DNA of 64,000 bases from Phycisphaerae bacterium. GTDB lineage: Bacteria > Planctomycetota > Phycisphaerae > UBA1845 > PWPN01. The first letter of the stretch is position 1, and each line of letters starts with the position of its first letter. Both the position numbers and the translations under genes were made by a program. The notes below the pieces were generated by a model. It did no database searches. It saw only the letters and a list, made by a program, of their open reading frames with translations, and was not told the origin of the DNA. This document shows positions 3,788 to 63,206 of the stretch, in pieces. The DNA is taken from the NCBI GenBank assembly GCA_018003015.1, contig JAGNEZ010000008.1, positions 97,599-161,598 on the forward strand, given 5' to 3'.

Positions 3788-3800
3788 CGCGGGTCCTCCC

Positions 3801-42349: not shown

Positions 42350-45300
42350 CTACTTGACCGGTTGAGATGATACCTTCGTCGGAGGTCTCGGCGGCGAGAT
42401 GGCATCCAAGCGGGCCTGGTATCGCTTCACGGCGCCTGCATCACCGTCCTTCCGAGCGCGACGAATCGCCCGCTCTAACACTACGGGATGATCGCTGTAG
42501 CCGGCCACGCGGGTGGCCAGTTCATCCGCGATCGCCTGGCCACGGGCCCTCTCGACCGCGTCCAGAAGACCCGGCACCCGCGCCACAGGAAGCATGTCGG
42601 CACCAACCAGCCGCGTCTCCAGGTCGATGGCAAAAGCTTGATCGCCACACAGCCGGGTGGCGTCCGCGATCCAGAGCCAATCGTCGTCGGCTTCCTTGCC
42701 CAGTTCCTTCATGCACGCCTGCACGATGGCCGAGGCTTCCTTCCTCAGACCGTTCTCCGCAGCCCACGAAGCCATCAGGCAGAGATGTCGCGTGGCCACT
42801 GAGGCACCAAGCGAACCTGCCGTGCGACGCGCTTGAATGTCAGACACGATCGCACCCAGGAACCGTGCGGGATCGGCCATCTCAACGGCCGGCGGCAATA
42901 GGTCGCGCGAGTCATATGGCTGGGCGAGTATCTCGTCACCCTGGGCGATCATGTCCAGCAGTTGCTTCACCTCGCCCCGAAACGCGTCGAACCGGCCTGC
43001 GGCGGCATCGCGACGAGCGATCGCGGCTCGAAGCTCGCGATGACGGACAGCGGCCGTGCCTGCTCCCAGGTGTCTCCGCAGCCGCTCCACTTGGCGATCG
43101 ACTTCGGCCCTGTCGCCCTCGGCGGTCAGGCGGTCGAGCCAGGCCGAATCGAACTCCTCGGACAGACCGTCCACCGGCGTCGGGCTGAACAGAGCCGCAA
43201 GGCGAGCCTTCTGCTCCGGCCGTTGCCGCTCCGGCCAGGTCGCCAAGTACTGATCGATTCGGCTGAATCGATCATCGGTACGCGACAGGGTCCGTCCCTT
43301 GAGCGAATCGGCCGCGAGCAGCCATCGGAGGATGTGCCGGGCCTGCTCGGCCTGCCCCTTGGACAGGCATACCCGGGCCAGCGTGGTCAGGTTCACCGTG
43401 TCGGTCGGCTCGAGATACGGGACCATCCCCGCGAGGGCGTCGGCCAGTGGCGCCGGCAAAGCGGCAGGGCCTTCCACGGCTAATGCCAGGAGCATGAGTC
43501 GATCCTTGACCGTCAGGGCATCGCGTTTCTGGGCGTCGAGCAGAACCCCGATCAGTCGGTCTCGAGTGCCGTTGATCCTTGTCGCCTTCAAGAGGCCGTC
43601 AATAAGACCGGGCACGTCCCGGCGTTCGGGGCGAGCACCCACCAGCATGCCCGCGTATTCCTCTTCCGCGAACGGCATGTCGGCCAAGGCCTCGAACAAA
43701 CGCGCCCGCTTCCACATCGGTGTCCGCTGCCTGTCGAAGAACTCAACCATGCCCCCGCCCGCGGAATCCGGCGGCCAGAAGGGAGTGTAGAAGCGGCCGT
43801 CGTCACGGTTGTGGGTCATGAATCGCCGGAAGGTCGTTCGGACATCGTCGGGGCGTCCCAGCCGGCGCAGAATCCGCATCAGTTCGACGGGTGCCAACGG
43901 AGTCTCGTCACGATGGACCGTAGCCAGTGCGGCCAGCGGGCAGAACAGGTCATAGTAGAGCTCGGTGAGCGTGCGCCACTCGTAGGATTCCATGATCGTA
44001 CTCTTGGTCAGCCGAGAGGACAGAAGCGCCGCCAGCTCCGCACAACGCTGGCTCTCCTTCATCGAGGTGATCACTTTTCGGCTGAAGATTCGATTGCCCG
44101 GCGCCAGCTCGAACGCCCCGCGGAACGCGGCCAGAGCCTCGGTGTGACGATCCGCGGCTTCCAGCAACAAGCCGTGCGTGAACTTCACCGTCGCCGTGGG
44201 CGGTTCGATTTCCTGGCGATCGGCCAGATCCGTGATCGCCTCGTCAAGGTCCGCTGGCCGCATGATCCCGATCAGCGAATCGAGCGTCCGCTTCTGGTCG
44301 TACTCCATCTGCTTGCCGCCGAGCAAGTTCTCCAGCGCCTCCTTGATCAGCGGGACTGCCTCGTCGTGCTTGCCGGCTGTCTCTCGGGCCACGGCGACAG
44401 AAGCGAGCACAGCGGTCTCGTTGGGATTCTCACTCAACAGAATCTCGCCCAGCCGGAAACCGACATCGGGACAGGCGGGATTGTGGTTCCACCGAGTCTG
44501 CGCCAACGTCGCCGTGCCCCGTTCGCCTGAAACCCGCACCTTCGGCGCCGACCGAAACAGGCCGACTAGGGTGTCGGCGAGTTCCTTCTCTGGTTGAAAG
44601 GCCAACCGTCCCGCCAGACCGAGGATCAGCATACGCTGCTCCGCAGGCTTCGCTGCGGCAACCATGGCCCGAACCAGTTCAGGCCGCTTGGCAGGGGTGG
44701 CCTTCTCCAGCAGCTGAGCCAGCGCATCGGCGCCGAGCGATGCCTGCTGGGCCGCGTTTTGCACCAGGGCGTCGATTTCCGGGAAGGGCTGTCCCAGTCC
44801 TTCGGCGATCTTCATGCGAAGCTGGTCAACGTAGACCCGTTCCTTATCATCCAGCGCAGCACCGATCTGGGCAACCTCGTCCAGCAACCGGGTGCGATCC
44901 TGCTCCGTCAGGCGATTCCAGACCAGCCGAACGCATTCCTCCAGGCTTTGGGCGAGCGTGTTGCCTTTCTTGATCCTGCGGCATCCGTCCAGCCAGATGG
45001 CCAGCCAGCGTTGCACCAGAACCGCATCATCGAGGGCCATCGCGGCCGCCACCATCATCGGGACGACCTTCTCCTTGTCGGATTCGACCGCCACTGCCGG
45101 CCTCACTTCACCGAGCAAGAGTCGAGCCTGATCATCGCGACCGAGCATGATCAGCACCGGCACAAGCCGCACGCCGAGGGCCGCAGTAACCTCACCCCTG
45201 GCGACTGCGTCGTCCAGACACCCGGGTTCGGTCAAATAGGTCATCAAAGCCAGTTCGTCGGGAGGCCGGCCGGCCACGGTTCCAGGCATAGCCATCGCCG

Positions 45301-48300
45301 CCGCTCGGGAATAGAGACCCCAATCAAGCCGAGTCCGAATCATGGCCATCCGCAAGTTGGCGTCCTGGGGATAACGTTCCAAAAGGCGGCTATCGATCTC
45401 GTCGGCCAACTCCGGCCGATGGATCGAGAAGGCAACCTGACGCAGAAACCGGGTAAGGCGATCAAGCCGCGGATGGCGGGCGATGCGTGCCGTCGGTTTC
45501 TGCTTGCCCAGGGCGGTCAACTCCTCATTGACGCGTTTGAGCACATCGTGGTGCAACTGCTCCCGCTGGGCCTCGCCACGAGCCGCGTTGAGCAACCCGT
45601 TGCACGCCGCCTCGAAAAACTGGGTCATCTCATCTACATTGTTGGCTCGCGTGGTTCGCGGCTGGCCCTCGGCAACGGCCGGCCGGCTTTGCGGCTGAGA
45701 GGCTGAATCCGACCCCACCATGCCGGGCAGGCGGCGAAGCATCAGATCGGCGGCCCGGTAGTACTGGCTGAAGGCGCGGTCGTATTGCCCCAACTGCTCG
45801 CTGAGTGTGCCCGACCGGATCAGCAAACGCACGTTGTCCGGCTCTCCGATGAGCAGTTCGCGGATGATCCGGTCGGCGTGAGCGGGCAGGTTCGCGTCCT
45901 CGTAGTACGAGGCGACCTGCTGCTGAATAGCGATGAAGTCGCCGTCGAGAGCAGCTCGTTCGAAGACACGCTCGGCGAGCGTGAACTTGCCTTGCTTGAT
46001 CATGGCCTCGCCCAGGTCGAGGAACACGCTGGGGGGAACCTCCTCGTCCAGGGCCAGCAGCGATCGACCGAAGGCCACCTGTTGGGCGACGCGCCCATCG
46101 GCCTTCGCGCCTTCCATCAGTTCCCGCAGCAGCGCCCCGCGACGCTCACCGGCCACGACCACGCACTGCTCAAGAACCGACTCCATCTGCTTGCGGCGGC
46201 TCATGGTTTCCAGGAGATCGACCGCCAGCGGGTACAGAAAGACTTTCTCCGGCCAGGCCGCGATGCGTGCGTACACCCGCCGCACCGCGGAACGCATCAC
46301 CGCGGGTTTGGCCTGGAGATTGAGCAGGCCGTCGATTGCGACCGTGAACAGGTCGTCCTCTTCCGTTTCCTCAACGAGATTCTGAAACCGAACCACCGCC
46401 CGATCCGGCTGACCGGCGGCCTTCAGCGCGTTGGCCCAGAGCAGCAACACTTCGATGTGGTCCGGATGACGTTCCAGAACGCGTTCGTAAGCCCGGGCCG
46501 CCTCCTCGTGGAGCCCGATCATATCCAGCACACCCGCTCCAAACTCCTCGGCGGTGGGATCGTTCGCGGCAACCCTGTACAACTCGGTCAATGCCATTCT
46601 CGCGTCCTGGGGTTGCTGCCGTTCGATAGCCACCATGGCCAGCTGCTGCAGGTAGTCAGCCGCGTTCGCCGGGTCTGCGTCCATCAGTCGCCGCAGGGTC
46701 GCGTTGCACCGGCCGAACTGCTCGCAGTTCAGGTAGACCTTCGCCAGTCGCTTCAGCATCTCGACCTGTCGACCGCTTCGTTTCCCGAAGTCGTTCAGGA
46801 TCTCTGCCGCCGAGACAGCGTCGTTCGCGGTCGTGTAGATGTCGACCAGGAGCGACAGCCGGCGATCATCGGCCTGACCGGCGTCGAGCTGCTCCTCGAT
46901 CTCGACGGCCAGATCGGCGAGTTTCCCCGTGCGCGATGCCAGGTCGAGCATCCGCTCCTGGGCCTGCTTCAATCGGGCCGGCACCTGCGTGGTCTGCCAG
47001 AGATTCCGCCAAAGATCGAACGCCTCGCCGAACCGCTGGTTGTTCTCGAGCAACCACGCAACGAGCAGCAAGACGTCCTCGGCCTTGGTCTTCTCGTAGA
47101 TCTGCTGAAAAAGCCGGAGAGACTCGGCCTTGTCGCCATAGCGCTCCAGCGTCTCGGCCACCGGCTGGAGCAACCTGGGATCCTCCTGGGCCGCCGGGAC
47201 GATCTCACGCACCAGGGCGATGGCTTGGTCCGTTCCACCGCGCAGACGAACCAGATCAGCCTCGAACAGGACTGAGCGGATCCGGTCGGCCGTGCTCCGG
47301 CTTCCGGCCTTGCGGGCCGCCGCGAGAGCCACGTCATCGAGTGCCAGCTGCCTAGCTCCGTCCGCAATACCCATGAGCGAGGGCACGTCGTCAAACCGCT
47401 GAACAGCTTCACTGAACAGTTGGAGAGCCTCGTCGCGCCTTCCGTCGAGCAGCCGCAGGCGGGCGAGACTGACCCGCCAGACCGCTTGTCTCGGATCGCG
47501 TGCGAGCAGGTTCAGATACGCCGCTTCGGCCTCCTGGGCCCGGCCGGCGCCCAGAGCGATCGCCACAACCTCTTTCTGGAAGTCCGGCGATTGCAGCAGC
47601 TCCGCCTGCTCCGGCGTTTGGGCCGGGCGAGTGAGCAGCCGCATGGCGTCATCCGAACGGTTGAGCTCACGGAGAATCGCGATCAGCATAGCCAGGCGGT
47701 CAGCCGGCAGCTGGTCGATGGTCAGCCACTTGTCGGCCAGCTCTCCCAGCCCGCCCGCGTCGCGCCAGGCCGTGACAATGCGCTCCAGGGCGTACTGCCG
47801 GTCGCGAGCCAGAATCGCCCGGGCATACGCCAGCTCGAACTGGGGGCCCGCCTCGGCAGGCCGGTTCAGCCGAAGCAGGAACAGCCCGCGGAAAAGGTGA
47901 TCGTGATACTCGGTCTTCTCGCCGCCATCGCCCGGCTTCAGCAGTTCAACGGCCAGTTCGTCATCGCCGCAAAGCGACGCCAGGTAGGCACAGAAACGCG
48001 CCGCACCGACAACGTCCTTCCGCCGGCTCGCCACGTCGCGCAGGATCGCACCCGCGGCCACCTTGTCGCCGGCGTCGTACAAGATCATGGCCTGCCGGGT
48101 CTTCAGAGCGAGAAGCTCCTCCTCCCCCGGCTGGGCGGCGATCGCTTTCTCCAGCCCTGCCAGGGCCGCCTTATCGCTGCCCCGCAATTCCTCGATCCGG
48201 GCCAGCTCACTGAGCAGGCGGGCGTCAGCCGGACCGCTCTGCGCCAATTCGACGAGCATCTGCTCGGCGGTCTCGAGATCACCCCGTCGCTTGGCCTCCA

Positions 48301-50980
48301 TCGCGGCAGCCAACGAGACCGACGCGCTCGCCGGCCGAGATACCGGCAGGCTCGCCACGGCAGCGGCTGCCTCGCAAGGCGCCGGGCCCACCGTGCAGAT
48401 CATCCCCGCAAAAAAAGCCGCCGCCGCCCCAGGCCCGGCGCGTCCCGGCCATCTCCGCACGGCCACGTTGATCAGGAACAGCACCAGGGATGCGGCGGTC
48501 AGCCAGGGCCACAACTCGATCGTCGCCTTCGCCGCAGCCGATCCGGCTCTCGCCACCGTCGTCACTTGCCGGCGCATGTCGGCCAAGTCCTGCATCAACG
48601 CCACATCCGGGCCGACCGCGTTGACTTCACGGGCCGGCGGAACGACCAGTGCAGCCTCTCCGCGCCTGCTGCCGTCCGCCAACACGGCGGACACGCGGTA
48701 CGTCCCCGGTGGAAGGCCGGCCACTCGGTGGTTCCACTCGCCAGGTGATACCGGATCGAGTGTCCACCGCCGTGCCTCTCCAGAGCCACCAACCACACCG
48801 AGCTCGACCGCCTGGCTGCCGGTGCCCGAGGCCAGCATCTGGTTGGCAATTCGCAGTTCGATCGCCCCCGGACGCATCACCGGCTCGATGCGCAACGCCT
48901 GTCGCGCGTTGGGGCCATACAAGCCGCGAGCCAGGTTGGACATCAAACGCGCGTAGGGCGGCCATTGAGATAAACCCCCCGTCCATTCGCCGCCGAGTTG
49001 CGAAGTGAACGCCGCCGCGGCTCCGAGTCCGAAATGCCATCGAGCCAGAATCGGGTGTCCCAGGCTCGACGCCAGAAGGAGATCAGCCGTCGGGCGAGCT
49101 TCGGTTTGCACGTATCCTTGAAGGGCGGGTGCCGCACCGAAATCCGTGCTCTCGGTCATCGCGTCTGCTCGACGCACCATCAGGGAGGTCGGCTGCTCGA
49201 TGAACGGAGCGAGCATCGAACTCTCCGGCTGCTTGACGATTACCTCCGGCAGATTGAAGCGATCCGGGGAAGAGTAGAACCGTCCACGACCCCAATGGGC
49301 CAAGCTGGCCAGGAAGGCGGAGTGAGCCCCAGGTCCGACCATGACCGTGGAGACAGTCATGCGGTGATCGGCCATCCTCCGAATCAACGGCTCGAACGCG
49401 CCGGTCTCGACACCGCCGTCGGTCAGCACGAGTACGTGCTTGGTGCGCGTGTGCACGTTCTGCAGGGCATAGTAGGCCTCCTCGATGGCCGGAAGGATGA
49501 CCGTGCCTCCGCTCGACGACAGGCGGTTGAGCGCCCGCTGAAGATCAATGGCGTTCGAGGCCGGCTGGATGGGCGCTGCCCATCGCTTGGCCCCGTAGAA
49601 CTCAACAATGCCGACCTTGTCATGGGGGCTCAGCCGCGAGATCGCCAGACGAGCGACTTCACGGGCCAGGTTGACGCGCGTGTCACCCATGCTGCCCGAC
49701 GTGTCGATGATGATCACCAGCGTCACGCTGGGGTCCTGCCTCTCGACTTCCTGCGAAAACCGCACGGGCATGACTTCAGCGAGAGGAGTGCCGGCGTAAC
49801 CACCCGGTCCGAACGACCTCCTTCCACCGGTCACCAGAAGGCCCATTCCCCTCACCACGCTCTCCCTGATCCGGACTTGCAGGTCGGTACCCAGGCTCTC
49901 GGCCGTGGTATCGGCGACGACCAGAAGATCCGCCTCGTTCAGGGCATCGGACGCTCCCAGACCTCCAAGAGGTATCCGAGTAACCTGCGCTGCCTTGCCG
50001 AGCATCGCAGCCAGGGCGGCGGTGGCCGGCGCCGCCGGGTTCTCCTCGATCACGCCCACCTGCCGAGGGGGCATGACCTCGACCGCGGCACTCAACGTGT
50101 TGTTGCCGTCCAAGGTGTCCGCCGAGCTCTCGATGCTGACCGTGTATTCGGCAAGCCCCTCATCTTCGAGGACCAGCGGCATGGTCAACACCTGGGAATC
50201 AGCCGAGAGGTTCACAGCCTGCGTGATCTCGCGCCCGTCACGGTTGCGGCGGACCGCCAGCCGGCCGGGTGCGGCTGACGCGCTCTGTACCTCGGCGATC
50301 AGGTTCACCGTAGCTCCGACAGCCGCAGCGGGAGGCAGCGACACGGACCGGAGCACGACCTCTTCGTTCCTGTGCGCACCGATGGTCCGCGCCTCGATCG
50401 ATATCCCACGCTGCCCAAGCCGAAAGGCCGCTGCTCGAGCGTCGCCACCGGTCTCAAGGCCGTCGCTGAACAGCACGATGCGATTATCGCCCCCGTCAGG
50501 AATCACCGCCCCGGCCAGCCCGAGAGCGTCGGCCAATGCCGAAGCCCCAACCATCGGTTGAGTGGTGGCTGCCTGCAATCGGCTGCCTGCGCTCCGCAGC
50601 TCAGCCAGACTCAGCGGTGCAAGTCCATCGCGATCGAGTTGAATCTCCCGGGCATGGCTGTCAAAAACCACAAGCCGAACGCGTTCATTCGGCTGGGTCT
50701 GTCTGGCGAGTACCTGCAAATCCGAGCTCACTACCTTCAGGTCTGCTTCACCCACGCTGGCCGACAGGTCAACCACCACCACAACGGTCCTGCCTCGCTC
50801 GCCCCGCTCGATCAACGGACGAGACAACGCCAGCACGAGCAGGATGTACGCTGAACACCGCAGACCGATGACCAACCCCGCCCGCACCCCGGACAAGCCC
50901 AACCGCGACGTGAAATGAAGGCCGGCCAGCAGTACAACCGGCACCAGCATCCACAACCACAGGGGATGTACGAAAACCAT
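42350..50980 (-). CDS. 2,876-aa BatA-N / vWA / GATase1-like / vWA / TM / TPR-solenoid megaprotein
   Basis: The N-terminus MVFVHPLWLWMLVPVVLLAG... is an aerotolerance-regulator-type double-TM domain. vWA-1 is at aa ~65-200 (VVDLSASVG). A GATase1-like block is LLVVADTTAE...GLLVTGG. vWA-2 has an intact MIDAS motif (IIIDTSGSMG, aa ~426; LVLTDGG). A TM segment lies at aa ~823-841 (LWPWLTAASLVLFLINVAV). About 1,990 aa of TPR-like helical repeats follow. Confidence 0.85.
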   Translation of the reverse strand: MVFVHPLWLWMLVPVVLLAGLHFTSRLGLSGVRAGLVIGLRCSAYILLVLALSRPLIERGERGRTVVVVVDLSASVGEADLKVVSSDLQVLARQTQPNERVRLVVFDSHAREIQLDRDGLAPLSLAELRSAGSRLQAATTQPMVGASALADALGLAGAVIPDGGDNRIVLFSDGLETGGDARAAAFRLGQRGISIEARTIGAHRNEEVVLRSVSLPPAAAVGATVNLIAEVQSASAAPGRLAVRRNRDGREITQAVNLSADSQVLTMPLVLEDEGLAEYTVSIESSADTLDGNNTLSAAVEVMPPRQVGVIEENPAAPATAALAAMLGKAAQVTRIPLGGLGASDALNEADLLVVADTTAESLGTDLQVRIRESVVRGMGLLVTGGRRSFGPGGYAGTPLAEVMPVRFSQEVERQDPSVTLVIIIDTSGSMGDTRVNLAREVARLAISRLSPHDKVGIVEFYGAKRWAAPIQPASNAIDLQRALNRLSSSGGTVILPAIEEAYYALQNVHTRTKHVLVLTDGGVETGAFEPLIRRMADHRMTVSTVMVGPGAHSAFLASLAHWGRGRFYSSPDRFNLPEVIVKQPESSMLAPFIEQPTSLMVRRADAMTESTDFGAAPALQGYVQTEARPTADLLLASSLGHPILARWHFGLGAAAAFTSQLGGEWTGGLSQWPPYARLMSNLARGLYGPNARQALRIEPVMRPGAIELRIANQMLASGTGSQAVELGVVGGSGEARRWTLDPVSPGEWNHRVAGLPPGTYRVSAVLADGSRRGEAALVVPPAREVNAVGPDVALMQDLADMRRQVTTVARAGSAAAKATIELWPWLTAASLVLFLINVAVRRWPGRAGPGAAAAFFAGMICTVGPAPCEAAAAVASLPVSRPASASVSLAAAMEAKRRGDLETAEQMLVELAQSGPADARLLSELARIEELRGSDKAALAGLEKAIAAQPGEEELLALKTRQAMILYDAGDKVAAGAILRDVASRRKDVVGAARFCAYLASLCGDDELAVELLKPGDGGEKTEYHDHLFRGLFLLRLNRPAEAGPQFELAYARAILARDRQYALERIVTAWRDAGGLGELADKWLTIDQLPADRLAMLIAILRELNRSDDAMRLLTRPAQTPEQAELLQSPDFQKEVVAIALGAGRAQEAEAAYLNLLARDPRQAVWRVSLARLRLLDGRRDEALQLFSEAVQRFDDVPSLMGIADGARQLALDDVALAAARKAGSRSTADRIRSVLFEADLVRLRGGTDQAIALVREIVPAAQEDPRLLQPVAETLERYGDKAESLRLFQQIYEKTKAEDVLLLVAWLLENNQRFGEAFDLWRNLWQTTQVPARLKQAQERMLDLASRTGKLADLAVEIEEQLDAGQADDRRLSLLVDIYTTANDAVSAAEILNDFGKRSGRQVEMLKRLAKVYLNCEQFGRCNATLRRLMDADPANAADYLQQLAMVAIERQQPQDARMALTELYRVAANDPTAEEFGAGVLDMIGLHEEAARAYERVLERHPDHIEVLLLWANALKAAGQPDRAVVRFQNLVEETEEDDLFTVAIDGLLNLQAKPAVMRSAVRRVYARIAAWPEKVFLYPLAVDLLETMSRRKQMESVLEQCVVVAGERRGALLRELMEGAKADGRVAQQVAFGRSLLALDEEVPPSVFLDLGEAMIKQGKFTLAERVFERAALDGDFIAIQQQVASYYEDANLPAHADRIIRELLIGEPDNVRLLIRSGTLSEQLGQYDRAFSQYYRAADLMLRRLPGMVGSDSASQPQSRPAVAEGQPRTTRANNVDEMTQFFEAACNGLLNAARGEAQREQLHHDVLKRVNEELTALGKQKPTARIARHPRLDRLTRFLRQVAFSIHRPELADEIDSRLLERYPQDANLRMAMIRTRLDWGLYSRAAAMAMPGTVAGRPPDELALMTYLTEPGCLDDAVARGEVTAALGVRLVPVLIMLGRDDQARLLLGEVRPAVAVESDKEKVVPMMVAAAMALDDAVLVQRWLAIWLDGCRRIKKGNTLAQSLEECVRLVWNRLTEQDRTRLLDEVAQIGAALDDKERVYVDQLRMKIAEGLGQPFPEIDALVQNAAQQASLGADALAQLLEKATPAKRPELVRAMVAAAKPAEQRMLILGLAGRLAFQPEKELADTLVGLFRSAPKVRVSGERGTATLAQTRWNHNPACPDVGFRLGEILLSENPNETAVLASVAVARETAGKHDEAVPLIKEALENLLGGKQMEYDQKRTLDSLIGIMRPADLDEAITDLADRQEIEPPTATVKFTHGLLLEAADRHTEALAAFRGAFELAPGNRIFSRKVITSMKESQRCAELAALLSSRLTKSTIMESYEWRTLTELYYDLFCPLAALATVHRDETPLAPVELMRILRRLGRPDDVRTTFRRFMTHNRDDGRFYTPFWPPDSAGGGMVEFFDRQRTPMWKRARLFEALADMPFAEEEYAGMLVGARPERRDVPGLIDGLLKATRINGTRDRLIGVLLDAQKRDALTVKDRLMLLALAVEGPAALPAPLADALAGMVPYLEPTDTVNLTTLARVCLSKGQAEQARHILRWLLAADSLKGRTLSRTDDRFSRIDQYLATWPERQRPEQKARLAALFSPTPVDGLSEEFDSAWLDRLTAEGDRAEVDRQVERLRRHLGAGTAAVRHRELRAAIARRDAAAGRFDAFRGEVKQLLDMIAQGDEILAQPYDSRDLLPPAVEMADPARFLGAIVSDIQARRTAGSLGASVATRHLCLMASWAAENGLRKEASAIVQACMKELGKEADDDWLWIADATRLCGDQAFAIDLETRLVGADMLPVARVPGLLDAVERARGQAIADELATRVAGYSDHPVVLERAIRRARKDGDAGAVKRYQARLDAISPPRPPTKVSSQPVK

Positions 50981-50983
50981 GGC

Positions 50984-52687
50984 TTAGGCTATCCTCCCCC
51001 GTGCGTGAAGGACGGCTTCCAGTAGAAACAACGCCAACGCCAGGGCCAGCAGGATCTCGAACGGAGCCGACCATCCCCAGCGCCCACTGCCGCTCGGAGG
51101 TTGGTCGCTCGCGCCGGCTCGAGGACTGGACAGATCGACCGCCGCTCTGCTGACGGGCATGGCCGTCACTTCCGTGGCCAGCGAAGTGCGTCGCGGCCAC
51201 AGCGGGTCCTCGAGCACCCGTTCCGGCGGAAGTACCACCGGATCCTCGTCCCAACCGGCCAGATAACGCAACGCTCGCGCCAGAAACACCGCAAACGGCG
51301 CTTGACGGACGAAGTCGGAATCAGTGGCCAGCAGAGCCGATCCCAGGATCACGCATGGAGCCGTGCCGCCGCCGTGGCAGGCCGCGAGCACAGCTCCGCC
51401 CGAGACCAACAAAGGTTGAGTCGAGCCTGGCAGCGCCCCGAGCGACGAACCCGCGCCGCAGGTCTGCCCGGCCACCTCCACGTCCACCTCCCGCAGCAGC
51501 GAGCACCTCAACGACACCTCGAGAGGACGACCGGCTTCGACGGCGGGGCCGTCGTTTCGCAACACCAACGACGGGCGCGGCAAGGTGCCAACCGGCGGAT
51601 CGACAACCACATCGATATCCCGCTCCAACCCATCCTCAACCAGTTGCACGGCCGGGTCGCTGCGAATGGCCGCGCGAACCGCCGCCGGCAACCACTGAGG
51701 ACCACCCACCCGAATCGCACTCCGATGGGGCAGCCGGAAAACCAGCTCGCGACCGACGACGTGACCTCCCGTTGAGGATAACGAGACGATCAAACGGTCT
51801 CCATCCGCCGGGAGATCCGATAGAGAGAAGTCCGCGCTCGCACCCGGTTCGACCGTCTCGGCGCGGCTCAACAGGCTCGCTCCACCCGCCCGGCGAATCT
51901 CAATTCTGGCCCTTTGAGGCTTACGACCTGCGGCGGCAACACGCACCGAGAATCGCCCTCGGAGCGAATGGTCGGCGTCAGGCTCGTAGACGGCCGACAC
52001 GATGCCCAGTCCATCGAGATCCTCACCGATCCGGACGACCTCGCACGGCACAGCTTCGGCACCGGCATCCGCAGCCGCGTCCGCAGGTACGTGATCGGTC
52101 AACAAGACCACACGCGGGTTGCCCCGTCCGTTGAGCAGCGACCGGGCCAGTCTTAGTCCCTCGCTGGTGACGGCAGGAACCGAAGCCGGCCGGATCTCGC
52201 GAAGACTTGAGGCGAGCGACACGATCGGCTGCTCAAACCCCAGCACCAGCCGCGGCCAGGGATCGACCAGGACCACCGCGACTCGATCGCCGGGCGACAG
52301 ACCCTTGATTCGTGCCTCAAGTGCGGTGATGGCGGCTTCCATCCGCGTTCCACCTGAAGAAGGAACCGGCGCGGCCATCGACGCCCCTGCGTCAAGCACG
52401 ATGACCTCATGCAGGCGGTTGGCGGCCTGCTCCGTCAGGCTCGGCTGGGCGAGCGCCAGGACTAGCAGCGTGCAAATCACCAGCAGAAGGGCATAGGTCA
52501 GCGGATGCCTGAAACGGTGCAGAATCGAACGGGCCCGCACACGTTCGACGGTCTCGGCCCAGAACAGCGTGGTCACGACCCGTACCGGCCTCGGACGAAC
52601 GCGAAGCAGATGCAGCACCGCCAGCATCGCCCCCGACGCGGCTACGATGGCCGCCGCCGCCCAGAATGGAATCCCCGCGAAGGTCAT
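50984..52687 (-). CDS. BatA-like membrane protein (aerotolerance-regulator N-terminal domain plus degenerate vWA-like region)
   Basis: 567 aa. The N-terminus is MTFAGIPFWAAAAIVAASGAMLAVLHLLRVRP...LTYALLLVICTLLVLALAQP. A degenerate metal-site block is VIVLDAGASMA. There is a C-terminal TM segment (FEILLALALALFLLEAVL). The stop is 3 nt before the next start. Confidence 0.75.
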   Translation of the reverse strand: MTFAGIPFWAAAAIVAASGAMLAVLHLLRVRPRPVRVVTTLFWAETVERVRARSILHRFRHPLTYALLLVICTLLVLALAQPSLTEQAANRLHEVIVLDAGASMAAPVPSSGGTRMEAAITALEARIKGLSPGDRVAVVLVDPWPRLVLGFEQPIVSLASSLREIRPASVPAVTSEGLRLARSLLNGRGNPRVVLLTDHVPADAAADAGAEAVPCEVVRIGEDLDGLGIVSAVYEPDADHSLRGRFSVRVAAAGRKPQRARIEIRRAGGASLLSRAETVEPGASADFSLSDLPADGDRLIVSLSSTGGHVVGRELVFRLPHRSAIRVGGPQWLPAAVRAAIRSDPAVQLVEDGLERDIDVVVDPPVGTLPRPSLVLRNDGPAVEAGRPLEVSLRCSLLREVDVEVAGQTCGAGSSLGALPGSTQPLLVSGGAVLAACHGGGTAPCVILGSALLATDSDFVRQAPFAVFLARALRYLAGWDEDPVVLPPERVLEDPLWPRRTSLATEVTAMPVSRAAVDLSSPRAGASDQPPSGSGRWGWSAPFEILLALALALFLLEAVLHARGRIA

Positions 52688-52700
52688 CAGTCTGTTCGCC

Positions 52701-53579
52701 TCATGTCACCAACACGCCGCCCGCGAACAAGTCGCTCAACTGGTCGAGCACCGGCCGATCGGCATTGAGACGCAAGTGAGCCGCCCGCTGCTGCAGCAGG
52801 GACTCGGCCAGCCGCGCGCTGAACGCCCGATACGCCTGCGCGTAACGGTCAAGTTCCTTCCCTGTGACGGTAACGTCTACTTCCGCTCCGGACTCGCAAT
52901 CGATGAGCCGCAGTTCTCCATCCACCGGCGGCCGAGCATCCGAGTCGCGCACCAATTGCACTACCAGCAGCCGGTGCCTCAATGAACCCAGTGCCCCGAT
53001 GACGGCTTCGACGCCCTGCGGATCAAAGAAATCGGAAATCACGACCACAAGGCCGCTCCTGAGTCTCAGCGTTCCGAACCGGCGAATCGACTTCACCAGA
53101 TCGGTGGGACCGGCCGGCGCAAGGCCATCAAGGAACTCCAGCGCATGTCGAAGTCGGTGCTTGCCCGAGAGACTGACTGCCGGCTGAACCAAGTCCGCTC
53201 CGAAGGGGTAGAGCCTGATGCGGTCAAACTGGTTCAGGCTCACCGCCGCCAGCACCCCTGCCATCTGGCGACCGCCGTCGGCCCGAGGGGGCGTCTCGAA
53301 GAACATCGAATCGCTGATGTCCACGAGAATGTAGACCGGCAAGTCCTCCGGCTCCTCGAAAAGCCGCAGGAACAGACGCCCGCTGCGCCGATACAGGCTC
53401 CAGTCGATCCGCCGCAAATCGTCACCAGGAACATAGGATCGGAAGTCGCGAAACTCCATTCCCGCGCCGAGATCGCGCGACCGGTGCTGCGCGTGGCGGC
53501 CACCAGCCAATACTTGCCGGGCCGTGATCCGCAGTCGCTCGATCGAACGAACGAAGTCCTCGGTGAACAGTGATGCCAT
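52701..53579 (-). CDS. DUF58 protein (vWA-fold partner of MoxR)
   Basis: Blocks GMEFRDFRSYVPGDDLRRIDWSLYRRSGRLFLRLFEEPEDLPVYILVDISDSM are diagnostic of DUF58. The ATG is at 53579 (MASLF); the track shows a TTG two codons upstream. Confidence 0.85.
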   Translation of the reverse strand: MASLFTEDFVRSIERLRITARQVLAGGRHAQHRSRDLGAGMEFRDFRSYVPGDDLRRIDWSLYRRSGRLFLRLFEEPEDLPVYILVDISDSMFFETPPRADGGRQMAGVLAAVSLNQFDRIRLYPFGADLVQPAVSLSGKHRLRHALEFLDGLAPAGPTDLVKSIRRFGTLRLRSGLVVVISDFFDPQGVEAVIGALGSLRHRLLVVQLVRDSDARPPVDGELRLIDCESGAEVDVTVTGKELDRYAQAYRAFSARLAESLLQQRAAHLRLNADRPVLDQLSDLFAGGVLVT

Positions 53580-53598
53580 GACCAACCCACGCGACGGA

Positions 53599-54624
53599 CT
53601 AGGAGGATAACTCGCTCACCGACCCAACCACCGCCTTCACCAGCTCATCGGTGTTCGCCCGGTCGGACTGCCCTTCGAAATTGAGCAGCACTCGATGGCG
53701 GAGTACCGGCAGGACTACATCGCGGACGTCCTGACAGGACACCGCGAACCGGCCGCCAAGCAGGGCTCGCACTTTGCCCATCAGCAGCAGACCTTGTGCC
53801 CCGCGCGGGCTCGAGCCGAGTGCCACGACCCGGTTGATCATCGCCGGGGCGTGCGGCGAACCGGGCTGCGTGGCCATGACCAGCCGGATCGCATAGCCAC
53901 GGACCTGATCGGTGACCGCCACCTGCCGGACGATCTGTCGCATCGCCATGACCTCCTCGCCGGTCGATACCGGCTCGATCGTGGGTATCTGCACCTCGGT
54001 CGTTCGCTGCAGAATCTGGTGATACTCCCGCTCCTGAGGGTAACCGACCATCAGCTTGACCAGGAAGCGATCCAACTGGGCCTCGGGTAGCGAATAGGTG
54101 CCTTCTTGTTCGATCGGATTCTGGGTCGCGACGACAATGAACGGCTCCGGTAGCTTCATCGTGCGCCGAGCCACGGACACCTGCCGTTCCTGCATGGCCT
54201 CAAGCAAGGCCGACTGAGTCTTCGGCGTGGCCCGGTTGATCTCGTCCGCCAGAATGAAGTTGGCAACGAGCGGCCCTTCGGCGAAACGCAGTTCATGCCC
54301 CCCACCCTCCTTCTCAGTCAGCATCATGGTACCGATGATGTCCGCCGGCATCAGGTCCGGCGTGAACTGGATGCGCGAGAACTGCAGCCGCAGTGCAGAA
54401 GCCAGAGTCCGGGCTAGGAGCGTCTTGCCCAGTCCGGGAACCCCCTCGAGCAGCACGTGACCGTCGGACAGTAGTACGGCCAACACGTTCTCGACCAGTT
54501 CATCGTGCCCGACAAAAACCTTGTGAACCTCTCGCTTGAGGCGGTCGAACACCTCCCGAAAGCGGCTTGCTTGTTCTTGCACGGCCGAGTCACTCCTCTG
54601 CACTGTCGGCATGGTCGAACTCAT
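53599..54624 (-). CDS. MoxR-family AAA+ ATPase
   Basis: 341 aa with Walker A GVPGLGKT, Walker B ILADEINRA, and QFTPDLMPADIIG and VVATQNPIEQEGTYSLPEAQLDRF, which are typical of the MoxR/AAA_3 family. Confidence 0.9.
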   Translation of the reverse strand: MSSTMPTVQRSDSAVQEQASRFREVFDRLKREVHKVFVGHDELVENVLAVLLSDGHVLLEGVPGLGKTLLARTLASALRLQFSRIQFTPDLMPADIIGTMMLTEKEGGGHELRFAEGPLVANFILADEINRATPKTQSALLEAMQERQVSVARRTMKLPEPFIVVATQNPIEQEGTYSLPEAQLDRFLVKLMVGYPQEREYHQILQRTTEVQIPTIEPVSTGEEVMAMRQIVRQVAVTDQVRGYAIRLVMATQPGSPHAPAMINRVVALGSSPRGAQGLLLMGKVRALLGGRFAVSCQDVRDVVLPVLRHRVLLNFEGQSDRANTDELVKAVVGSVSELSS

Positions 54625-54633
54625 GACCTAAAC

Positions 54634-56160
54634 TCACTCCTGTAAAGGCTTACTCGCGGGCGGCCCGGGGGTGTCGCCGCCGCGGCTCGACTCCTGATCC
54701 GCAGAATGTAATGCCGCCAGATAGCGTTGCACGGTGGCGGCCATGGCCGGCGGCACCCGATACCGAGAGCTGGGATCCTCCGGCAACGAACGGGGTGGGG
54801 CGGCAACGGGAACGGCGGGTTCACCTGGCATCGGCGCCGGCTCCACCCGCTCACGCGTGACCTTGCTCACGCCCGGGCCCAACCTCCCTCTGACGAAATC
54901 CGGGATGGGCACGCCCAGCACCAGCGAGGCCGTACCCCGCGATTTCTTCGGTGGCGTCGGACCGCCCCGCCCCCCTCCCGGCGGACCCTGCTCGCCACTG
55001 ATGCCAAGATCACGTGTCGGTGCGGCTTGCCGGTCCTTCAGCGTGGGCTGGATGCCGCCTCGCTGCGTGTTCGCCGACTTCTCATCCTCGGTGGGTTCGT
55101 CCACCTCGTCGTCCTCACGCTCGTGGCCCCGGGTCTCCAGACGCTGCGAAGCGCTGTTCTGCACGGGCGACATGCCTCCTCCTCCCGAAGAACCCTGGCT
55201 GATCGAGGATGCGTCCTCCTGGGCTTGACTCGCCTTCGAACCGGGCTCCCTGCTCTGCCGGCCGCGGTCTTTCCTCGCAGGCGCCGGAGCCCTTCGTTCC
55301 TTCGGCTTGCCCGCGCCTTGACTCTCCGAGGCTTCCCCCTTCGTGCTTTCTGACTGGCTCGAGGCATTGACTTCCGCGCGGGCTCCGCCGCCGGGTCGCC
55401 CGACCGCCGGTTCCGACCGGGGCTTGACGCCCGGCCTGTTCGCCGGGGCTGCCGCGCCGGAACGATCCGCCTTTCCCACTGCGGCCAGGACCGGCGGCGC
55501 CGCCGGCCTGGATAGCTCACGAGTCTTCAGGAACTGACCGGACGATGACCGCTCCACCGCGGCAGACGCGCCCATCGGCACCGGCATCTCCGCGACGGTG
55601 CCGGGGGGCTTTCCACCCGAAATGAGCCCCGCAACCATCATCAACCCCATCGCCATCGCCACCCGCTGCAGGCCGCCCATCCAGTCCATCTCCGCCCGCT
55701 CCACGTGAGGCAAGTGTGGGTACCAGCGACGAAGGTAATCGAGCCCGTCCCTGATGGCCGCCATTCCGAACGGACCTGCATCGCGGTCTTCAGACAGGGC
55801 CAAGGCAATCGCAATGCGGTTGTGATCCTGCACGCCCAGGTCGAGTCGCTCCGCAGCCTCGGTCAGCGACACCTGACGGCGAATCGCACGCACCATGACG
55901 ACAACCGCCGGCAGCCCTGCGGCCAACAGCGCGAGAACCAGGAAGCCCCGCCACCCAAGCAGCGATGTCTGACCCAGCACGCGGTTCGTCAGCTGCAGAA
56001 AGAACACCGCCCCAGCCGTCGCGAGGAGCGTCTCGGAACCCCAATTCAGAGCCACCGGGACCCGGGCGCGCACCCCCGCCCAACGAACGCGTCGCCGGCA
56101 GTCCGCCAGCAGAACCGCCATTTCCGGCCGAGGGTCGGCATGGGTGTGAAGCTCACTCAT
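54634..56160 (-). CDS. Membrane protein with a long Pro/Gly/Ser/Arg/Glu-rich disordered C-terminal half
   Basis: 508 aa with 3-4 TM segments in the first ~200 aa, followed by low-complexity sequence (…GGGARAEVNASSQSESTKGEASESQGAGKPKERRAPAPARKDRGRQSREPG…). Its start overlaps the upstream stop (ATGA at 56157-56160), and its stop is 9 nt before the moxR-like start. Confidence 0.7.
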   Translation of the reverse strand: MSELHTHADPRPEMAVLLADCRRRVRWAGVRARVPVALNWGSETLLATAGAVFFLQLTNRVLGQTSLLGWRGFLVLALLAAGLPAVVVMVRAIRRQVSLTEAAERLDLGVQDHNRIAIALALSEDRDAGPFGMAAIRDGLDYLRRWYPHLPHVERAEMDWMGGLQRVAMAMGLMMVAGLISGGKPPGTVAEMPVPMGASAAVERSSSGQFLKTRELSRPAAPPVLAAVGKADRSGAAAPANRPGVKPRSEPAVGRPGGGARAEVNASSQSESTKGEASESQGAGKPKERRAPAPARKDRGRQSREPGSKASQAQEDASSISQGSSGGGGMSPVQNSASQRLETRGHEREDDEVDEPTEDEKSANTQRGGIQPTLKDRQAAPTRDLGISGEQGPPGGGRGGPTPPKKSRGTASLVLGVPIPDFVRGRLGPGVSKVTRERVEPAPMPGEPAVPVAAPPRSLPEDPSSRYRVPPAMAATVQRYLAALHSADQESSRGGDTPGPPASKPLQE

Positions 56161-58505
56161 GAGCCCCCTCCGGCGCCGTTGTTCTTAACCGCAAGCGACC
56201 GGGCAACCAGGACCTCGCGCGTTCTGGAGTCCTGGAGGAAAGCCACGACCACGCACGCCCCGGGATCCACGAAAAACGGCCGCATCAGGAACCGAACCTC
56301 CTTCTCCGCTTCGACAGCCGAGATTCGCTTGTCCAGTTCCTCGCTGACCGCCGCGACCGTCAGCATCACCTCGTAACTCCGGCCCCCACTCCCCGCAGGC
56401 AATTCAAAACCGCCCTCGGGCGACAGCAAGGCTCTGGCCACCGAGCGGTGCAGGACCACGCCGTTGGCCGCGGGGAGCATTACTAGTCGCTCGCATAGAA
56501 TCACATGCAGGCGAAGGCTTCCTCCGGCTTCTGAACCCTGGACCTCGATAATGCCGACGAACTTGCCCTCGGTGAAAGCGATACGGCCATCCACCTTCCA
56601 CGCCGCGACGCCGACTCTTCCGGCGAGGGCGGCACCTTGGTACGCGGCGTAGACCTGGGCCGCATTCTTCTCGTCCCCCGCGTCTGTCTTCGGCCCCTTT
56701 CCGTCAAAGAAGGCGGCGGGCGCAGTGGTTGTCTGATAAAAGCCGGCACGCGATACACTCGCCCTGGAAACAAGCGGCTCCGCCGCAGGGGAGGCGAGAT
56801 GGTATTGGACCCACGACACGTCCGTGCCGTCGAAATACTGTTGGAGACCACCGAAAGCCAGTTCCGGCGCCGCGGTGGAGCCGTGATCGACACAGGTGAA
56901 GAGTTCGACCAGCTGCACGGGCTTGGCATCCTCGCCCTTGCCGCCTTCCCCAAATCGATCAGCAGGATGAAACGCCGGCACCCGCCCTTCGAGAAGCTGT
57001 TCCGCGTCACCCATCGAGAAACTCGCCCGGAAGTCGGCGTCGCGGTTGAGGCGATCAAGACCGCGAAAGGCATCTGCTGGAGCATCGTCGCTGATGGCCG
57101 CCTGCACGAACCGCGACCACGCACGCGCAGCCTTTCCTGTTCGTTCGTACAGCTCCCCGAGCCAGAGATTGACCAGCGGATCACGAGGAAGACCAAACGC
57201 CGCGGATAGCAGCGCCCGACGAGCCTCCTTGAGGTCATTCCGCTGAAGCGCGATCTGACCCGTGCGAGCCAGGATCTGATGTGCCGCCACGCCGTTCAGG
57301 TCGGTAGACGCCGATTCCTGGCCGATCTTGAGCACCTCCGTCGCAAGCTCGTACTTGTCCGTTCGCTTTCCGGCAATCAACGCATCGGCCAAGGTGACTA
57401 GACTTGCGGCCCGACGGTTCTCAGGCGTCAGATCCGCGCGCATCCGCACTGCACGAGTGATCGCCTCACGGGGACCGGCCGTGTCTTCGAGTCTGAGCGC
57501 CAACAGCTTCTCCGCAGCCTCCTTCGCCAGCCGGGATGTCGCGTGACCCTTCACGAATGACTCGATCGCCTCCGCATTCCCATCCGTCCGTGCCTGATAG
57601 TACGCCCGCTCCTCGATGGGAAACCTGGGCTCGCGCGTCTGCTCAAACAGCATCCGCCGATGCGTCTGGTCGATGGTCACACGGAGACTGCTCAGCAGAT
57701 TCACACCCAGCACCAGATCCGGCCGCGGCTCCGGGGCTTCGGACAGGTCTTCCGGGCGAAACGCCACAAGGCGAGCGAGGTTGAGCCCGCCGAGGCTCAG
57801 CGGGTCGATCGCACCACCGGCTGAGCCCGCCAGATCCGCGGCGGTCGAATCGATAATCGTGTCGTTGCCCGAGGTCATGAACCGCGTGCGGAGCGTGAAT
57901 CCGTCCGCGGCAACCGCCTTCAACCAGTAACCCGAGCCTGACTCCTCGTACGGCACGACCGTGGCTTTCGAGACCCCGTCGCTGCCGCTCCTCTCCCCTT
58001 CGCTCAGCACCGCCTCCTCGCCCGGCAACAGCCTGAGAACACCCTCGCCAATCTCGATCTGGACGCCGAACTGCTCAAACGCCGGCAGACCGAGGTACGC
58101 GATCGCCGGGATCTCGCCCAGCTCCGGAGCATAGTCCCGCGACAAGTCCTCCAGTTCCTTGAGCCCCGTGGCGTGGGTCTTCAGGTTCCCCAGAGCCAGA
58201 TCACCGAAACGCACCTCCCCCCGTGAATCTCCGCCGATCTCCAGCAGCTTGCCGCTACGCTCATGGATCACCAGCGGCATCTTCAGACCCAGCTCAATGA
58301 CGACGTTCGCCGGTATACCCTTGCTCGGACCGTGGATCGTACCCATGGCGCACGGCCGACCATCCACGACCTTGAACCTGATCTCCGCAGCGGCCTGAAC
58401 GGGAACCTCAAAGGCCCAGATGGCCGCCATCACGCCGGCAACGAAGGCATGAAAGGGTGCCCGCCCAGAACACCATCGCCATAAGAAGCGAACGCGCAAT
58501 ACCAT
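56157..58505 (-). CDS. Secreted hypothetical protein (beta-rich N-domain, TPR-like middle, unknown C-domain)
   Basis: The preferred start MVLRVRFLWRWCSGRAPFHAFVAGVMAAIWAFEVPVQA (signal-like) is at ATG 58505. The track ORF's further 94 N-terminal residues run into the integrase-remnant region and look non-coding. No catalytic motif was recognised. Confidence 0.65.
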   Translation of the reverse strand: MVLRVRFLWRWCSGRAPFHAFVAGVMAAIWAFEVPVQAAAEIRFKVVDGRPCAMGTIHGPSKGIPANVVIELGLKMPLVIHERSGKLLEIGGDSRGEVRFGDLALGNLKTHATGLKELEDLSRDYAPELGEIPAIAYLGLPAFEQFGVQIEIGEGVLRLLPGEEAVLSEGERSGSDGVSKATVVPYEESGSGYWLKAVAADGFTLRTRFMTSGNDTIIDSTAADLAGSAGGAIDPLSLGGLNLARLVAFRPEDLSEAPEPRPDLVLGVNLLSSLRVTIDQTHRRMLFEQTREPRFPIEERAYYQARTDGNAEAIESFVKGHATSRLAKEAAEKLLALRLEDTAGPREAITRAVRMRADLTPENRRAASLVTLADALIAGKRTDKYELATEVLKIGQESASTDLNGVAAHQILARTGQIALQRNDLKEARRALLSAAFGLPRDPLVNLWLGELYERTGKAARAWSRFVQAAISDDAPADAFRGLDRLNRDADFRASFSMGDAEQLLEGRVPAFHPADRFGEGGKGEDAKPVQLVELFTCVDHGSTAAPELAFGGLQQYFDGTDVSWVQYHLASPAAEPLVSRASVSRAGFYQTTTAPAAFFDGKGPKTDAGDEKNAAQVYAAYQGAALAGRVGVAAWKVDGRIAFTEGKFVGIIEVQGSEAGGSLRLHVILCERLVMLPAANGVVLHRSVARALLSPEGGFELPAGSGGRSYEVMLTVAAVSEELDKRISAVEAEKEVRFLMRPFFVDPGACVVVAFLQDSRTREVLVARSLAVKNNGAGGGS

Positions 58506-59318: not shown

Positions 59319-59391
59319 TGAGGGCGCTGGGACTCGAACCCAGGACACACGGCTTAAAAGGCCGTTGCTCTGCCGACTGAGCTACGCCCCC
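59319..59391 (-). tRNA. tRNA-Lys (anticodon UUU)
   Basis: The minus strand reads GGGGGCG TA GCTC AGTCGGCA GAGC A ACGGC CTTTTAA GCCGT GTGTC CTGGG TTCGAGT CCCAG CGCCCTC A. This gives a 7-bp acceptor (one G-U), a 4-bp D stem, a 5-bp anticodon stem, loop CU-UUU-AA, a 5-bp T stem with a TTCGAGT loop, and discriminator A. CCA is not encoded. Confidence 0.95.
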
Positions 59392-61404: not shown

Positions 61405-61690
61405 ATCCCGATCCTCCGGACGAACAAGAGACACGCTGCTTACAAATGTCTGAGGAAACACCCGACCCAGCCAAGTGCCAGGATATATTCTCGGACCGGC
61501 CATGTCAAGTCACACATCATGTTCTGGATGTACGCTTCCAGGGTCGGACGAGCCCCCGACCCGGCGACAGCAGGCCCAAGGAGAACCACGACCCGGCCGC
61601 GGCTCCTTCCGTCTGCACGTGAAACAGCCACGACTCGCCGGTGCTGATTCAAGCGGCTCCTCTGTCTCGTGGTATCTACTGGGATAGGCT

Positions 61691-63202: not shown

Positions 63203-63206
63203 AGGA

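Follow-up and report, generated by a model that had tools for sequence, protein, structure and literature searches.

A conserved six-gene MoxR-DUF58-vWA-TPR cluster of Planctomycetota predicted to encode a two-compartment membrane complex

Six tightly packed genes are found on the minus strand at positions 42350-58505 of a 64,000-nucleotide (nt) stretch of contig JAGNEZ010000008.1 (assembly GCA_018003015.1, Phycisphaerae bacterium), analysed at its full length and referred to here as the window. From upstream to downstream, the open reading frame (ORF) list gives an exported protein (gene 1), a membrane protein with a long disordered region (gene 2), a MoxR ATPase (gene 3), a DUF58 protein (gene 4), a BatA-like membrane protein with a domain of the von Willebrand factor A (vWA) type (gene 5) and a 2,876-residue giant that combines vWA domains with tetratricopeptide repeats (TPR; gene 6). 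The start of gene 2 and the stop of gene 1 overlap as ATGA at 56157-56160, and the remaining genes are separated by 9, 13, 13 and 3 nt; the first of the 13-nt gaps, which places a vWA-type partner directly next to MoxR, widens to 19 nt if gene 4 is begun at the alternative ATG. Coordinates, spacing and overlap are all as given in the original prediction. With a probability of about 0.6, the cluster is read here as an operon, conserved in Planctomycetota, that specifies a membrane complex of two compartments with a role in envelope maintenance or remodelling. The features are collected in Table 1.

Table 1. Coordinates of the cluster, its domains and other features; positions are those of the window unless a related locus (handles of the form L003) is named.
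Feature	Position	Strand	Residues or length	Remark
Gene 6, giant	42350-50980	-	2,876 aa	
N-terminal part	48455-50980	-	aa 1-842	separate gene in many relatives
Transmembrane hairpin	50819-50980	-	aa 1-54	
vWA1	50381-50818	-	aa 55-200	
Beta-sandwich 1	50045-50359	-	aa 208-312	
GATase1-like N-half	49736-50029	-	aa 318-415	
vWA2	49241-49726	-	aa 419-580	MIDAS DTSGS..GGT..TDGG
GATase1-like C-half	48911-49225	-	aa 586-690	
Beta-sandwich 2	48641-48895	-	aa 696-780	
TM3	48455-48514	-	aa 823-842	
Fusion joint	48362-48454	-	aa 843-873	RRWPGRAGPG loop, then weakly hydrophobic AAAAFFAGMICTVGPAPCEAAAAV
Fourth segment	48362-48430	-	aa 851-873	weakly hydrophobic, behind TM3
C-terminal TPR part	42350-48361	-	aa 874-2876	
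Gene 5, BatA-like vWA membrane protein	50984-52687	-	567 aa	
Gene 4, DUF58	52701-53585	-	294 aa	from TTG 53585; 292 aa from ATG 53579
Gene 3, MoxR	53599-54624	-	341 aa	
Gene 2, membrane/disordered protein	54634-56160	-	508 aa	
Gene 1, exported protein	56157-58505	-	782 aa	from ATG 58505; ORF open to 58787
Signal peptide	58392-58505	-	aa 1-38	
Pepsin-like bilobed beta domain	57636-58388	-	aa 40-290	
TPR helices	56991-57617	-	aa 297-505	
Thioredoxin-like and beta-sandwich domain	56181-56912	-	aa 532-775	
tRNA-Lys (anticodon TTT)	59319-59391	-		Rfam; inside 1.28-kb gap upstream of gene 1
571-aa protein	59788-61503	-	571 aa	upstream of tRNA; no Pfam match
Classical AAA protein (PF00004)	61691-63256	-	521 aa	upstream of tRNA
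PEP-CTERM gene	40912-42156	+		convergent; directly beyond gene 6
Small TPR protein	39737-40672	-	311 aa	Pfam; possible accessory
Fer4_5/4Fe-4S protein	38422-39630	-	402 aa	Pfam; possible accessory
ORF with right-handed beta-helix match	21192-26768	+	1,858 aa	
Large ORF	971-3811	-		no match
Large ORF	3801-6086	-		no match
TPR/Fer4_5 pair, L001	18014-20047			
TPR/Fer4_5 pair, L008	17412-19899			
TPR/Fer4_5 pair, L009	17538-19640			
TPR/Fer4_5 pair, L084	16676-18778			
TPR/Fer4_5 pair, L003	109-2286			
PEP-CTERM proteins, L004	18502-19857, 23618-24667			
PEP-CTERM protein, L075	46-1113			
PEP-CTERM protein, L077	17476-18831			
PEP-CTERM protein, L080	17478-18839			
Broken giant, L003/L013	10001-18573			Tepidisphaeraceae, nanopore-derived bin

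The N-terminal part of the giant (AlphaFold2 model, mean predicted local distance difference test score, pLDDT, of 85) scores 73-78 bits with VWA/VWA_2 of Pfam and 26.3 bits, against a cut-off of 27, with GATase1_like (PF07090), a family that is recorded for most of its homologues. Sequence matches to solved GATase1-like proteins lie on either side of vWA2 (3rht_A at aa 340-414 and 2gk3_A at aa 613-683) and correspond to positions 41-117 and 179-249 of the solved chains. Because the halves on both sides match such proteins, vWA2 is modelled as an insertion inside a GATase1-like domain. The two vWA domains, the intact metal ion-dependent adhesion site (MIDAS) of the second and the transmembrane (TM) helix behind them were correctly foreseen in the original prediction, which had placed vWA2 after the GATase1-like block and not within it. 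The vWA fold matches Bacteroides BatB (3ibs) and 4jdu from B. fragilis at only 20% identity (Foldseek, target-normalised TM-score ∼0.65).

By far the most conserved segment of the protein is vWA2, with 75-85% majority identity across the phylum. Its MIDAS residues (Asp426-Thr-Ser428-Gly-Ser430, Gly491-Gly-Thr493 and Thr520-Asp521-Gly-Gly) are invariant in 31 sequences, and Asp71, Ser73, Ser75 and Asp173 of vWA1 are conserved at 90% or more. A BatA-type N-terminus, which had also been proposed, is not supported by family matches: no Pfam BatA match is obtained on the giant's own N-terminus, PF07584 occurs in none of its listed homologues and the likeness is confined to an M.F..P..L pattern and the TM hairpin. 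Some 1,990 residues of TPR-like repeats had been described for the remainder; many TPR-family matches are indeed found with Pfam and NCBIfam, all at aa ∼1100-2300, and the last ∼575 residues give no family match. Within the TPR part, conservation falls from ∼55% at aa 1300-1750 to ∼30% in the residues after 1750. All homologues nevertheless have this part, and the ∼2,000-residue region is presumed to be helical throughout.

A protein identical to the giant is on deposit from a Phycisphaerae metagenome-assembled genome (MAG), where it is encoded on a 161.7-kb contig. Homologues at 83 and 77% identity are 2,875 and 2,877 residues long. Full-length homologues with 2,600-3,340 residues number more than 110; among the named ones are those of Limihaloglobus sulfuriphilus and of MAGs labelled Fuerstiella, Aureliella and Rhodopirellula. 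Because the close homologues are almost equal in length, the 8.6-kb ORF is, as far as sequence can tell, real and intact. The relatives in which the gene comes in two or more pieces might raise the suspicion that ordinary genes have been run together by faulty assembly or annotation. Such an origin is next to negligible in view of the fused state in 27 related loci, the full-length database proteins, the agreement of close relatives to within 1-2 residues and a split form that always breaks at one domain boundary, often with a translational-coupling overlap; a mis-join or frameshift is ruled out by the full-length homologues together with the fixed split point.

A synteny scan with one genome per species, in which the vWA2 stretch served as the query, matched at least 197 species genomes, and 80 loci were kept. 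Nearly all of these are labelled Planctomycetota, including the cultured Saltatorellus ferox Poly30, and a few derive from MAGs labelled Verrucomicrobia or Lentisphaerota. The six-gene order is seen in almost every related locus with enough flank. Four distant homologues that were looked up (from Limihaloglobus, an Aureliella-type, a Tepidisphaeraceae and a Phycisphaeraceae genome) share this order, with all six proteins recognisably orthologous: a protein of ∼740-810 residues, one of ∼470-530 residues, MoxR, DUF58, a protein of ∼520-570 residues and the giant. The fused giant is common and not peculiar to the source genome, and the cluster is phylum-wide.

The 8.6-kb gene is nevertheless divided in many relatives. 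Over 84 loci the giant is split into two genes in 40, fused in 27 and broken elsewhere in seven. The split point is fixed, ∼210-280 residues after vWA2 and just behind the third TM helix; a 4-nt ATGA or GTGA overlap joins the two genes in 24 of 39 loci, and the separate TPR orthologues mostly comprise 2,100-2,430 residues where complete. Judged from these loci, the 2,876-residue protein is a natural fusion of a ∼850-residue vWA membrane protein with a ∼2,000-residue TPR protein, which bears out the suggestion that the two components had been collapsed into one chain, and the splitting at a domain boundary elsewhere indicates that the halves form a functional pair. Breaks away from the usual point (L003/L013, L005, L019, L035, L046 and L080) are probably sequencing frameshifts and not real gene boundaries; in L003 the pieces are 1,833 and 1,038 residues long and overlap by 46 nt. 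In a rough neighbour-joining tree of MoxR, fused forms appear in three places: the Phycisphaerae-like clade containing the window, a clade with loci of Aureliella and Rubripirellula type that lies among split forms, and a separate third clade. On this tree the state has therefore changed at least twice, and the fused giant is one of two common states.

The split orthologues also bear on topology. Their N-terminal proteins end in TM3 and an RRxPR motif (...YRRWPR) followed by the stop codon, and their TPR proteins start with a positively charged N-terminus and a hydrophobic core, often with an AxA-type site. When a strict hydrophobicity threshold is applied, 32 of 39 loci show this signal-peptide-like start, and several others look similar by eye. 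Among the fused homologues, 95 of 113 have a second hydrophobic segment after TM3. The window has one as well, weakly hydrophobic, at aa 851-873, where the original prediction had counted a single further TM segment. We read it as a signal peptide that once belonged to the TPR protein and now serves as TM4, and we take the RRWPGRAGPG loop before it to be cytoplasmic. Signal peptidase might still cleave the fused giant, yielding two chains. An AxA-type site (AVA before Ser) follows the relic signal peptide; the Ala-rich sequence makes such motifs common by chance.

If aa 851-873 are a former signal peptide, then the TPR part and the vWA block both lie in the periplasm. Together with the charge distribution, the split orthologues point strongly to a periplasmic location for the vWA block and TPR part of the giant, for most of the gene 5 protein and for the gene 1 protein, and equally to anchoring of the periplasmic parts in the inner membrane by BatA-type hairpins. 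The large domains are accordingly predicted to be periplasmic, neither cytoplasmic nor exposed on the cell surface, with ∼4,500 out of ∼4,770 residues in the six products on that side. This agrees with the BatA-like protein BB0173, the vWA domain of which was found by experiment to be periplasmic (PMC5700661).

MoxR ATPases function with vWA partners (PMC3495828). Assignment of gene 3 to this class, originally proposed from the Walker A motif GVPGLGKT, is supported by Pfam matches of 210 bits with AAA_3 (cut-off 27) and 50 bits with AAA_lid_2. The closest solved chain is 2r44_A, which matches over the full length (E value 9 × 10−72); RavA (5 × 10−11) and the AAA modules of midasin (down to 6 × 10−18) match more distantly, and the protein is 58-85% identical to the orthologues of related loci. 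The DUF58 call for gene 4 (PF01882) is equally secure, at 108 bits against a cut-off of 23.4, with the DxSxS motif kept as VDISDS and orthologues at the same position in related loci. A hydrophobicity scan found no TM segment in either protein and no signal peptide in MoxR; both are predicted to be cytoplasmic because they lack a TM segment.

A MoxR-vWA type conflict or anti-phage system was considered in this context, since the MoxR protein matches the bpMoxR model of MoxR-vWA-beta-propeller ternary systems (56 bits, cut-off 27). AAA_3 scores far higher, the PADLOC output is limited to weak P-loop matches, the Pfam and NCBIfam scans show neither a beta-propeller nor an effector domain and the gene order is fixed across the phylum, unlike that of a mobile defence island. 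A defence role is very improbable and was rejected on the negative PADLOC result together with phylum-wide conservation.

The gene 5 protein matches VWA_2 with 40 bits. Orthologue alignment and the TM scan show a TM1-loop-TM2 hairpin, the Arg-rich loop of which (HLLRVRPR..TTLFW) is conserved, followed by a degenerate vWA domain (DAGAS), a beta-sandwich and a C-terminal TM helix; the vWA domain and the beta-sandwich are predicted to be periplasmic. Residues 58-348 align with residues 31-334 of the giant (hhalign, probability 98.4%, E value 5 × 10−15), which identifies the protein, on the strength of this alignment, as a paralogue of the first third of the giant.

Genes 1 and 2 give no significant Pfam or NCBIfam match, and their homologues with an organism name are all of planctomycete type but one, consistent with the earlier view that they stand outside the Bat set. 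Translation of gene 1 most likely starts at ATG 58505, which has an AGGAGG sequence 5 nt upstream and is also where a deposited, identical 782-residue protein begins. By sequence, the gene 1 family shows only TPR matches and, in five of 38 members, weak Omp28 matches; the fold was resolved by Foldseek with an AlphaFold2 model (pLDDT 88). The two N-terminal lobes match cathepsin D, renin and pepsin (probability 1.00, E value ∼10−6, target-normalised TM-score 0.45-0.5), and the C-terminal domain matches the thioredoxin-fold protein HBP35 (5y1a; E value 4 × 10−7). No conserved CxxC is found in the thioredoxin-like domain, the consensus there being FTCxDxPxT. The family comprises 775 representatives at E ≤ 10−30, most of 720-830 residues. 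A subset of ∼500-540 residues (P0358, P0368-P0375 and similar) has the pepsin-like and TPR parts without the thioredoxin-like C-terminal domain, and a few proteins of ∼1,350-1,450 residues bear that domain in another context.

The pepsin-like fold raises the alternative that the cluster serves membrane proteolysis or quality control, in which the vWA domains recruit substrates, MoxR supplies energy and the gene 1 protein is the peptidase. MoxR-vWA operons with a transglutaminase-like peptidase have been proposed by Zhang and Aravind (PMC3495828), and most members of the gene 1 family keep one acidic residue in each lobe. However, the canonical Asp-Thr/Ser-Gly of aspartic peptidases is found in neither lobe: lobe 1 has VVI[D/E]LG, with Glu in place of the first Asp in the source genome, and lobe 2 has DTxID, without the Gly. 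In addition, no peptidase family of Pfam matches the sequence, and the gene 1 protein is exported while MoxR is cytoplasmic, so that ATP-driven unfolding could not feed it directly. Proteolysis by those family members that keep both Asp residues is possible; as an account of the cluster, this alternative is decidedly unlikely.

An alignment of five orthologues shows that the gene 2 protein is rich in Arg at its N-terminus and then forms a TM hairpin (∼aa 41-92), followed by a conserved segment (AAExLDL..HNRIATAL, ∼aa 93-160) and a third hydrophobic segment (∼aa 163-185). The remainder is a long disordered region rich in Ser, Lys, Glu and Pro, with an acidic patch and a conserved C-terminal motif (RGGxQP..DR..GRGGP..KKSRG.A..L.VP.P). 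From the distribution of charge, the segment at ∼aa 93-160 is probably cytoplasmic. The layout resembles that of TonB or TolA in organisation only. Scanned singly, the five orthologues give scattered single-member Pfam matches and one chance-level NCBIfam match; 80 homologues were found, most of ∼500 residues and all unnamed hypothetical proteins. Genes 1 and 2 represent two sizeable families, encountered in clusters of this kind only, that are a gap in the domain libraries.

Of the known systems that come close, the Bat operon of Bacteroides and spirochaetes has in common MoxR and DUF58, followed by hairpin membrane proteins with MIDAS-bearing vWA domains, and TPR components, with the same linkage of vWA membrane and TPR proteins to MoxR/DUF58. 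It differs in several respects. Here the BatA_N and BatA equivalog scores fall below their thresholds, and the six cluster proteins contain no BatD or SH3-type match in Pfam or NCBIfam. The vWA membrane protein is ∼850 residues long and combines a pair of vWA domains with a GATase1-like domain and a pair of beta-sandwiches, the TPR part has ∼2,000 residues and two extra conserved genes precede MoxR. The TPR components BatC and BatE of classical Bat operons are far smaller.

These shared parts also suggest that the cluster could simply be the planctomycete Bat operon, protecting the periplasm from oxidative damage or supplying it with reducing power. This would fit the original proposal that Bat proteins reduce damaged periplasmic proteins or export reducing equivalents (PMC3557215), as would the resemblance of the gene 1 thioredoxin-like domain to HBP35 and the recurrence of a Fer4_5 4Fe-4S protein as a neighbour in some lineages. 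On the other hand, the NCBIfam BatA equivalog NF047508 is matched with 29.5 bits against a cut-off of 380, BatD and SH3-type families are missing from the scans, the thioredoxin-like domain lacks the conserved CxxC and the Fer4 pair is absent from most loci. The cluster is present both in Limihaloglobus, which we take to be a strict anaerobe, and in the Saltatorellus and Rhodopirellula-type lineages, presumably aerobes. Leptospira bat mutants are as sensitive to oxidants as the wild type (PMC3557215). A redox role of this kind is consequently considered unlikely.

Other systems share part of this arrangement. The cmdA-cmdD operon of Rhizobium leguminosarum (RL3499-RL3502), said to have been described by Vanderlinde et al. 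in 2011, reportedly encodes a MoxR protein, a DUF58 protein and two transmembrane proteins; by description, not by sequence, this order matches genes 3-6. To our knowledge, the cmd operon has neither a TPR component nor counterparts of genes 1 and 2. Envelope and cell-shape defects of cmdA-cmdD mutants are cited in a report on BB0173 (PMC5700661). RavA-ViaA, NorQ-NorD and CbbQ-CbbO likewise have a gene for a MoxR-class AAA+ protein next to one for a vWA-type partner. There the ATPase and its vWA protein both reside in the cytoplasm, where the MIDAS acts, and they remodel one particular enzyme; in the present cluster DUF58 is the only such partner on the cytoplasmic side, and a periplasmic location is predicted for the conserved MIDAS domains. 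The vWA 'force transducers' coupled to TolQR in the Planctomycetes-Verrucomicrobia-Chlamydiae (PVC) group and other phyla, of unassigned function, also have a periplasmic vWA domain tethered to the inner membrane and, in the PVC group, a TPR gene alongside (PMC12204202). They are proposed to use a proton-motive TolQ/TolR-like motor and have a single TM helix with an SHLS motif (PMC12204202); in contrast, the six cluster proteins give no TolQ/ExbB or TolR/ExbD match, and the energy module is MoxR-DUF58. The cluster thus follows the parts list and logic of the Bat and Cmd systems, but with a distinct composition that is conserved across the phylum. Full-text searches combining MoxR, DUF58, BatA or vWA/TPR with Planctomycetes, in a partial coverage of the literature, found no paper describing it.

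For the favoured reading, a membrane complex working in two compartments, the following mechanism is proposed. MoxR, as a hexamer to which the vWA-like DUF58 serves as adaptor, would act on the hairpins through their short, conserved loops in the cytoplasm, on the segment of gene 2 that lies on that side, or on both. Its action would assemble the complex or switch the state of the periplasmic MIDAS, loosely like inside-out switching of integrins; this coupling of MoxR-DUF58 to the periplasm is the speculative step. The MIDAS sites, chiefly that of vWA2, would bind or release acidic ligands, one candidate being the patch of acidic residues that the gene 2 protein has in its long tail on the periplasmic side, and the TPR array and the pepsin-fold/TPR protein of gene 1 may hold client proteins. 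The net role would be to maintain or remodel the cell envelope, in line with the Bat and Cmd relatives, which bear on stress tolerance and envelope integrity. For Bat proteins it has been suggested that MoxR supplies the MIDAS sites with metal (PMC3557215); should the predicted topology hold, this is an unlikely route here, because the membrane would separate the ATPase from the MIDAS. A bolder version is a trans-periplasmic machine specific to Planctomycetota, in which cytoplasmic MoxR-DUF58 switches MIDAS adhesion while the TPR array and the TonB/TolA-like gene 2 tail span the unusually wide periplasm of these bacteria and organise or tether the envelope; the odds are well against it.

Several observations weigh against the envelope-complex reading. 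Four loci (L065, L072, L078 and L079) have a full-length giant of 2,709-2,791 residues with no recognisable homologue of genes 1-5 upstream, so that physical linkage is not obligatory; the upstream genes are unrelated in L065 (alpha/beta hydrolase) and L078 (sulfatase, DUF2961, methyltransferase), and these giants may be either relocated orthologues or a paralogous branch. The BatA label originally given to gene 5 is below threshold (BatA_N, PF07584, 21.9 bits; cut-off 25.9), its vWA assignment alone holding. Co-transcription, topology and function of the cluster are all deduced, and we know of no Bat-type system that explains how a cytoplasmic ATPase acts on periplasmic domains. Leptospira strains from which batABD had been deleted showed no change in morphology, growth rate or oxidant resistance (PMC3557215).

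The supplement to a Planctopirus limnophila transposon study mentions AAA_3 and DUF58 five times each, and the four genes of these families that are shown are all scored as non-essential (PMC10632474). There, Plim_1419 (AAA_3) is three genes from Plim_1416, a DUF1355 (GATase1-like) gene (PMC10632474). Plim_1416-Plim_1419 and Plim_0614-Plim_0615 may or may not correspond to the cluster, and the scores are not read as evidence on its essentiality.

The operon is bounded upstream by the tRNA-Lys gene, the only Rfam match in the window. Terminator-like sites within the cluster are at chance level (12 against 10.4 expected), and four promoter-like sites were found against 1.4 expected, none of them decisive; the GC content is uniform over the region. 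The 571-residue protein and the classical AAA protein beyond the tRNA were rejected as cluster members, as they are not conserved neighbours in other loci.

In the window, the PEP-CTERM gene sits between the operon and the pair of TPR and Fer4_5 genes. In L001, L008, L009 and L084, a corresponding pair (∼290 and ∼395 residues) lies directly downstream of the giant and shares its strand; the pair of L003 is upstream and in divergent orientation, L082 retains just the TPR gene and most other loci lack the pair. Since it is found in a minority of loci only, it is listed not as a core part but as a possible accessory, which may be a redox module. PEP-CTERM-tailed relatives with 31-38% identity adjoin the cluster in several Phycisphaeraceae-type loci. 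The 1,858-residue ORF, the sole match of which is a right-handed beta-helix, and the two large ORFs near the start of the window appear to be unrelated to the cluster.

MoxR-DUF58-vWA-TPR operons of the Bat/Cmd kind are widespread and their mechanism is unsolved. The present cluster adds constraints in the form of a fixed fusion/fission point that sets the topology, a MIDAS that is invariant across the phylum, a paralogous pair of hairpin proteins and two new partner families. If the trans-periplasmic machine were true, it would give the first mechanistic handle on Bat-type coupling of ATP hydrolysis across the inner membrane. Planctomycetes have unusual envelopes, and a conserved cluster with mostly periplasmic protein is a good target for genetics and cryo-tomography in these bacteria.

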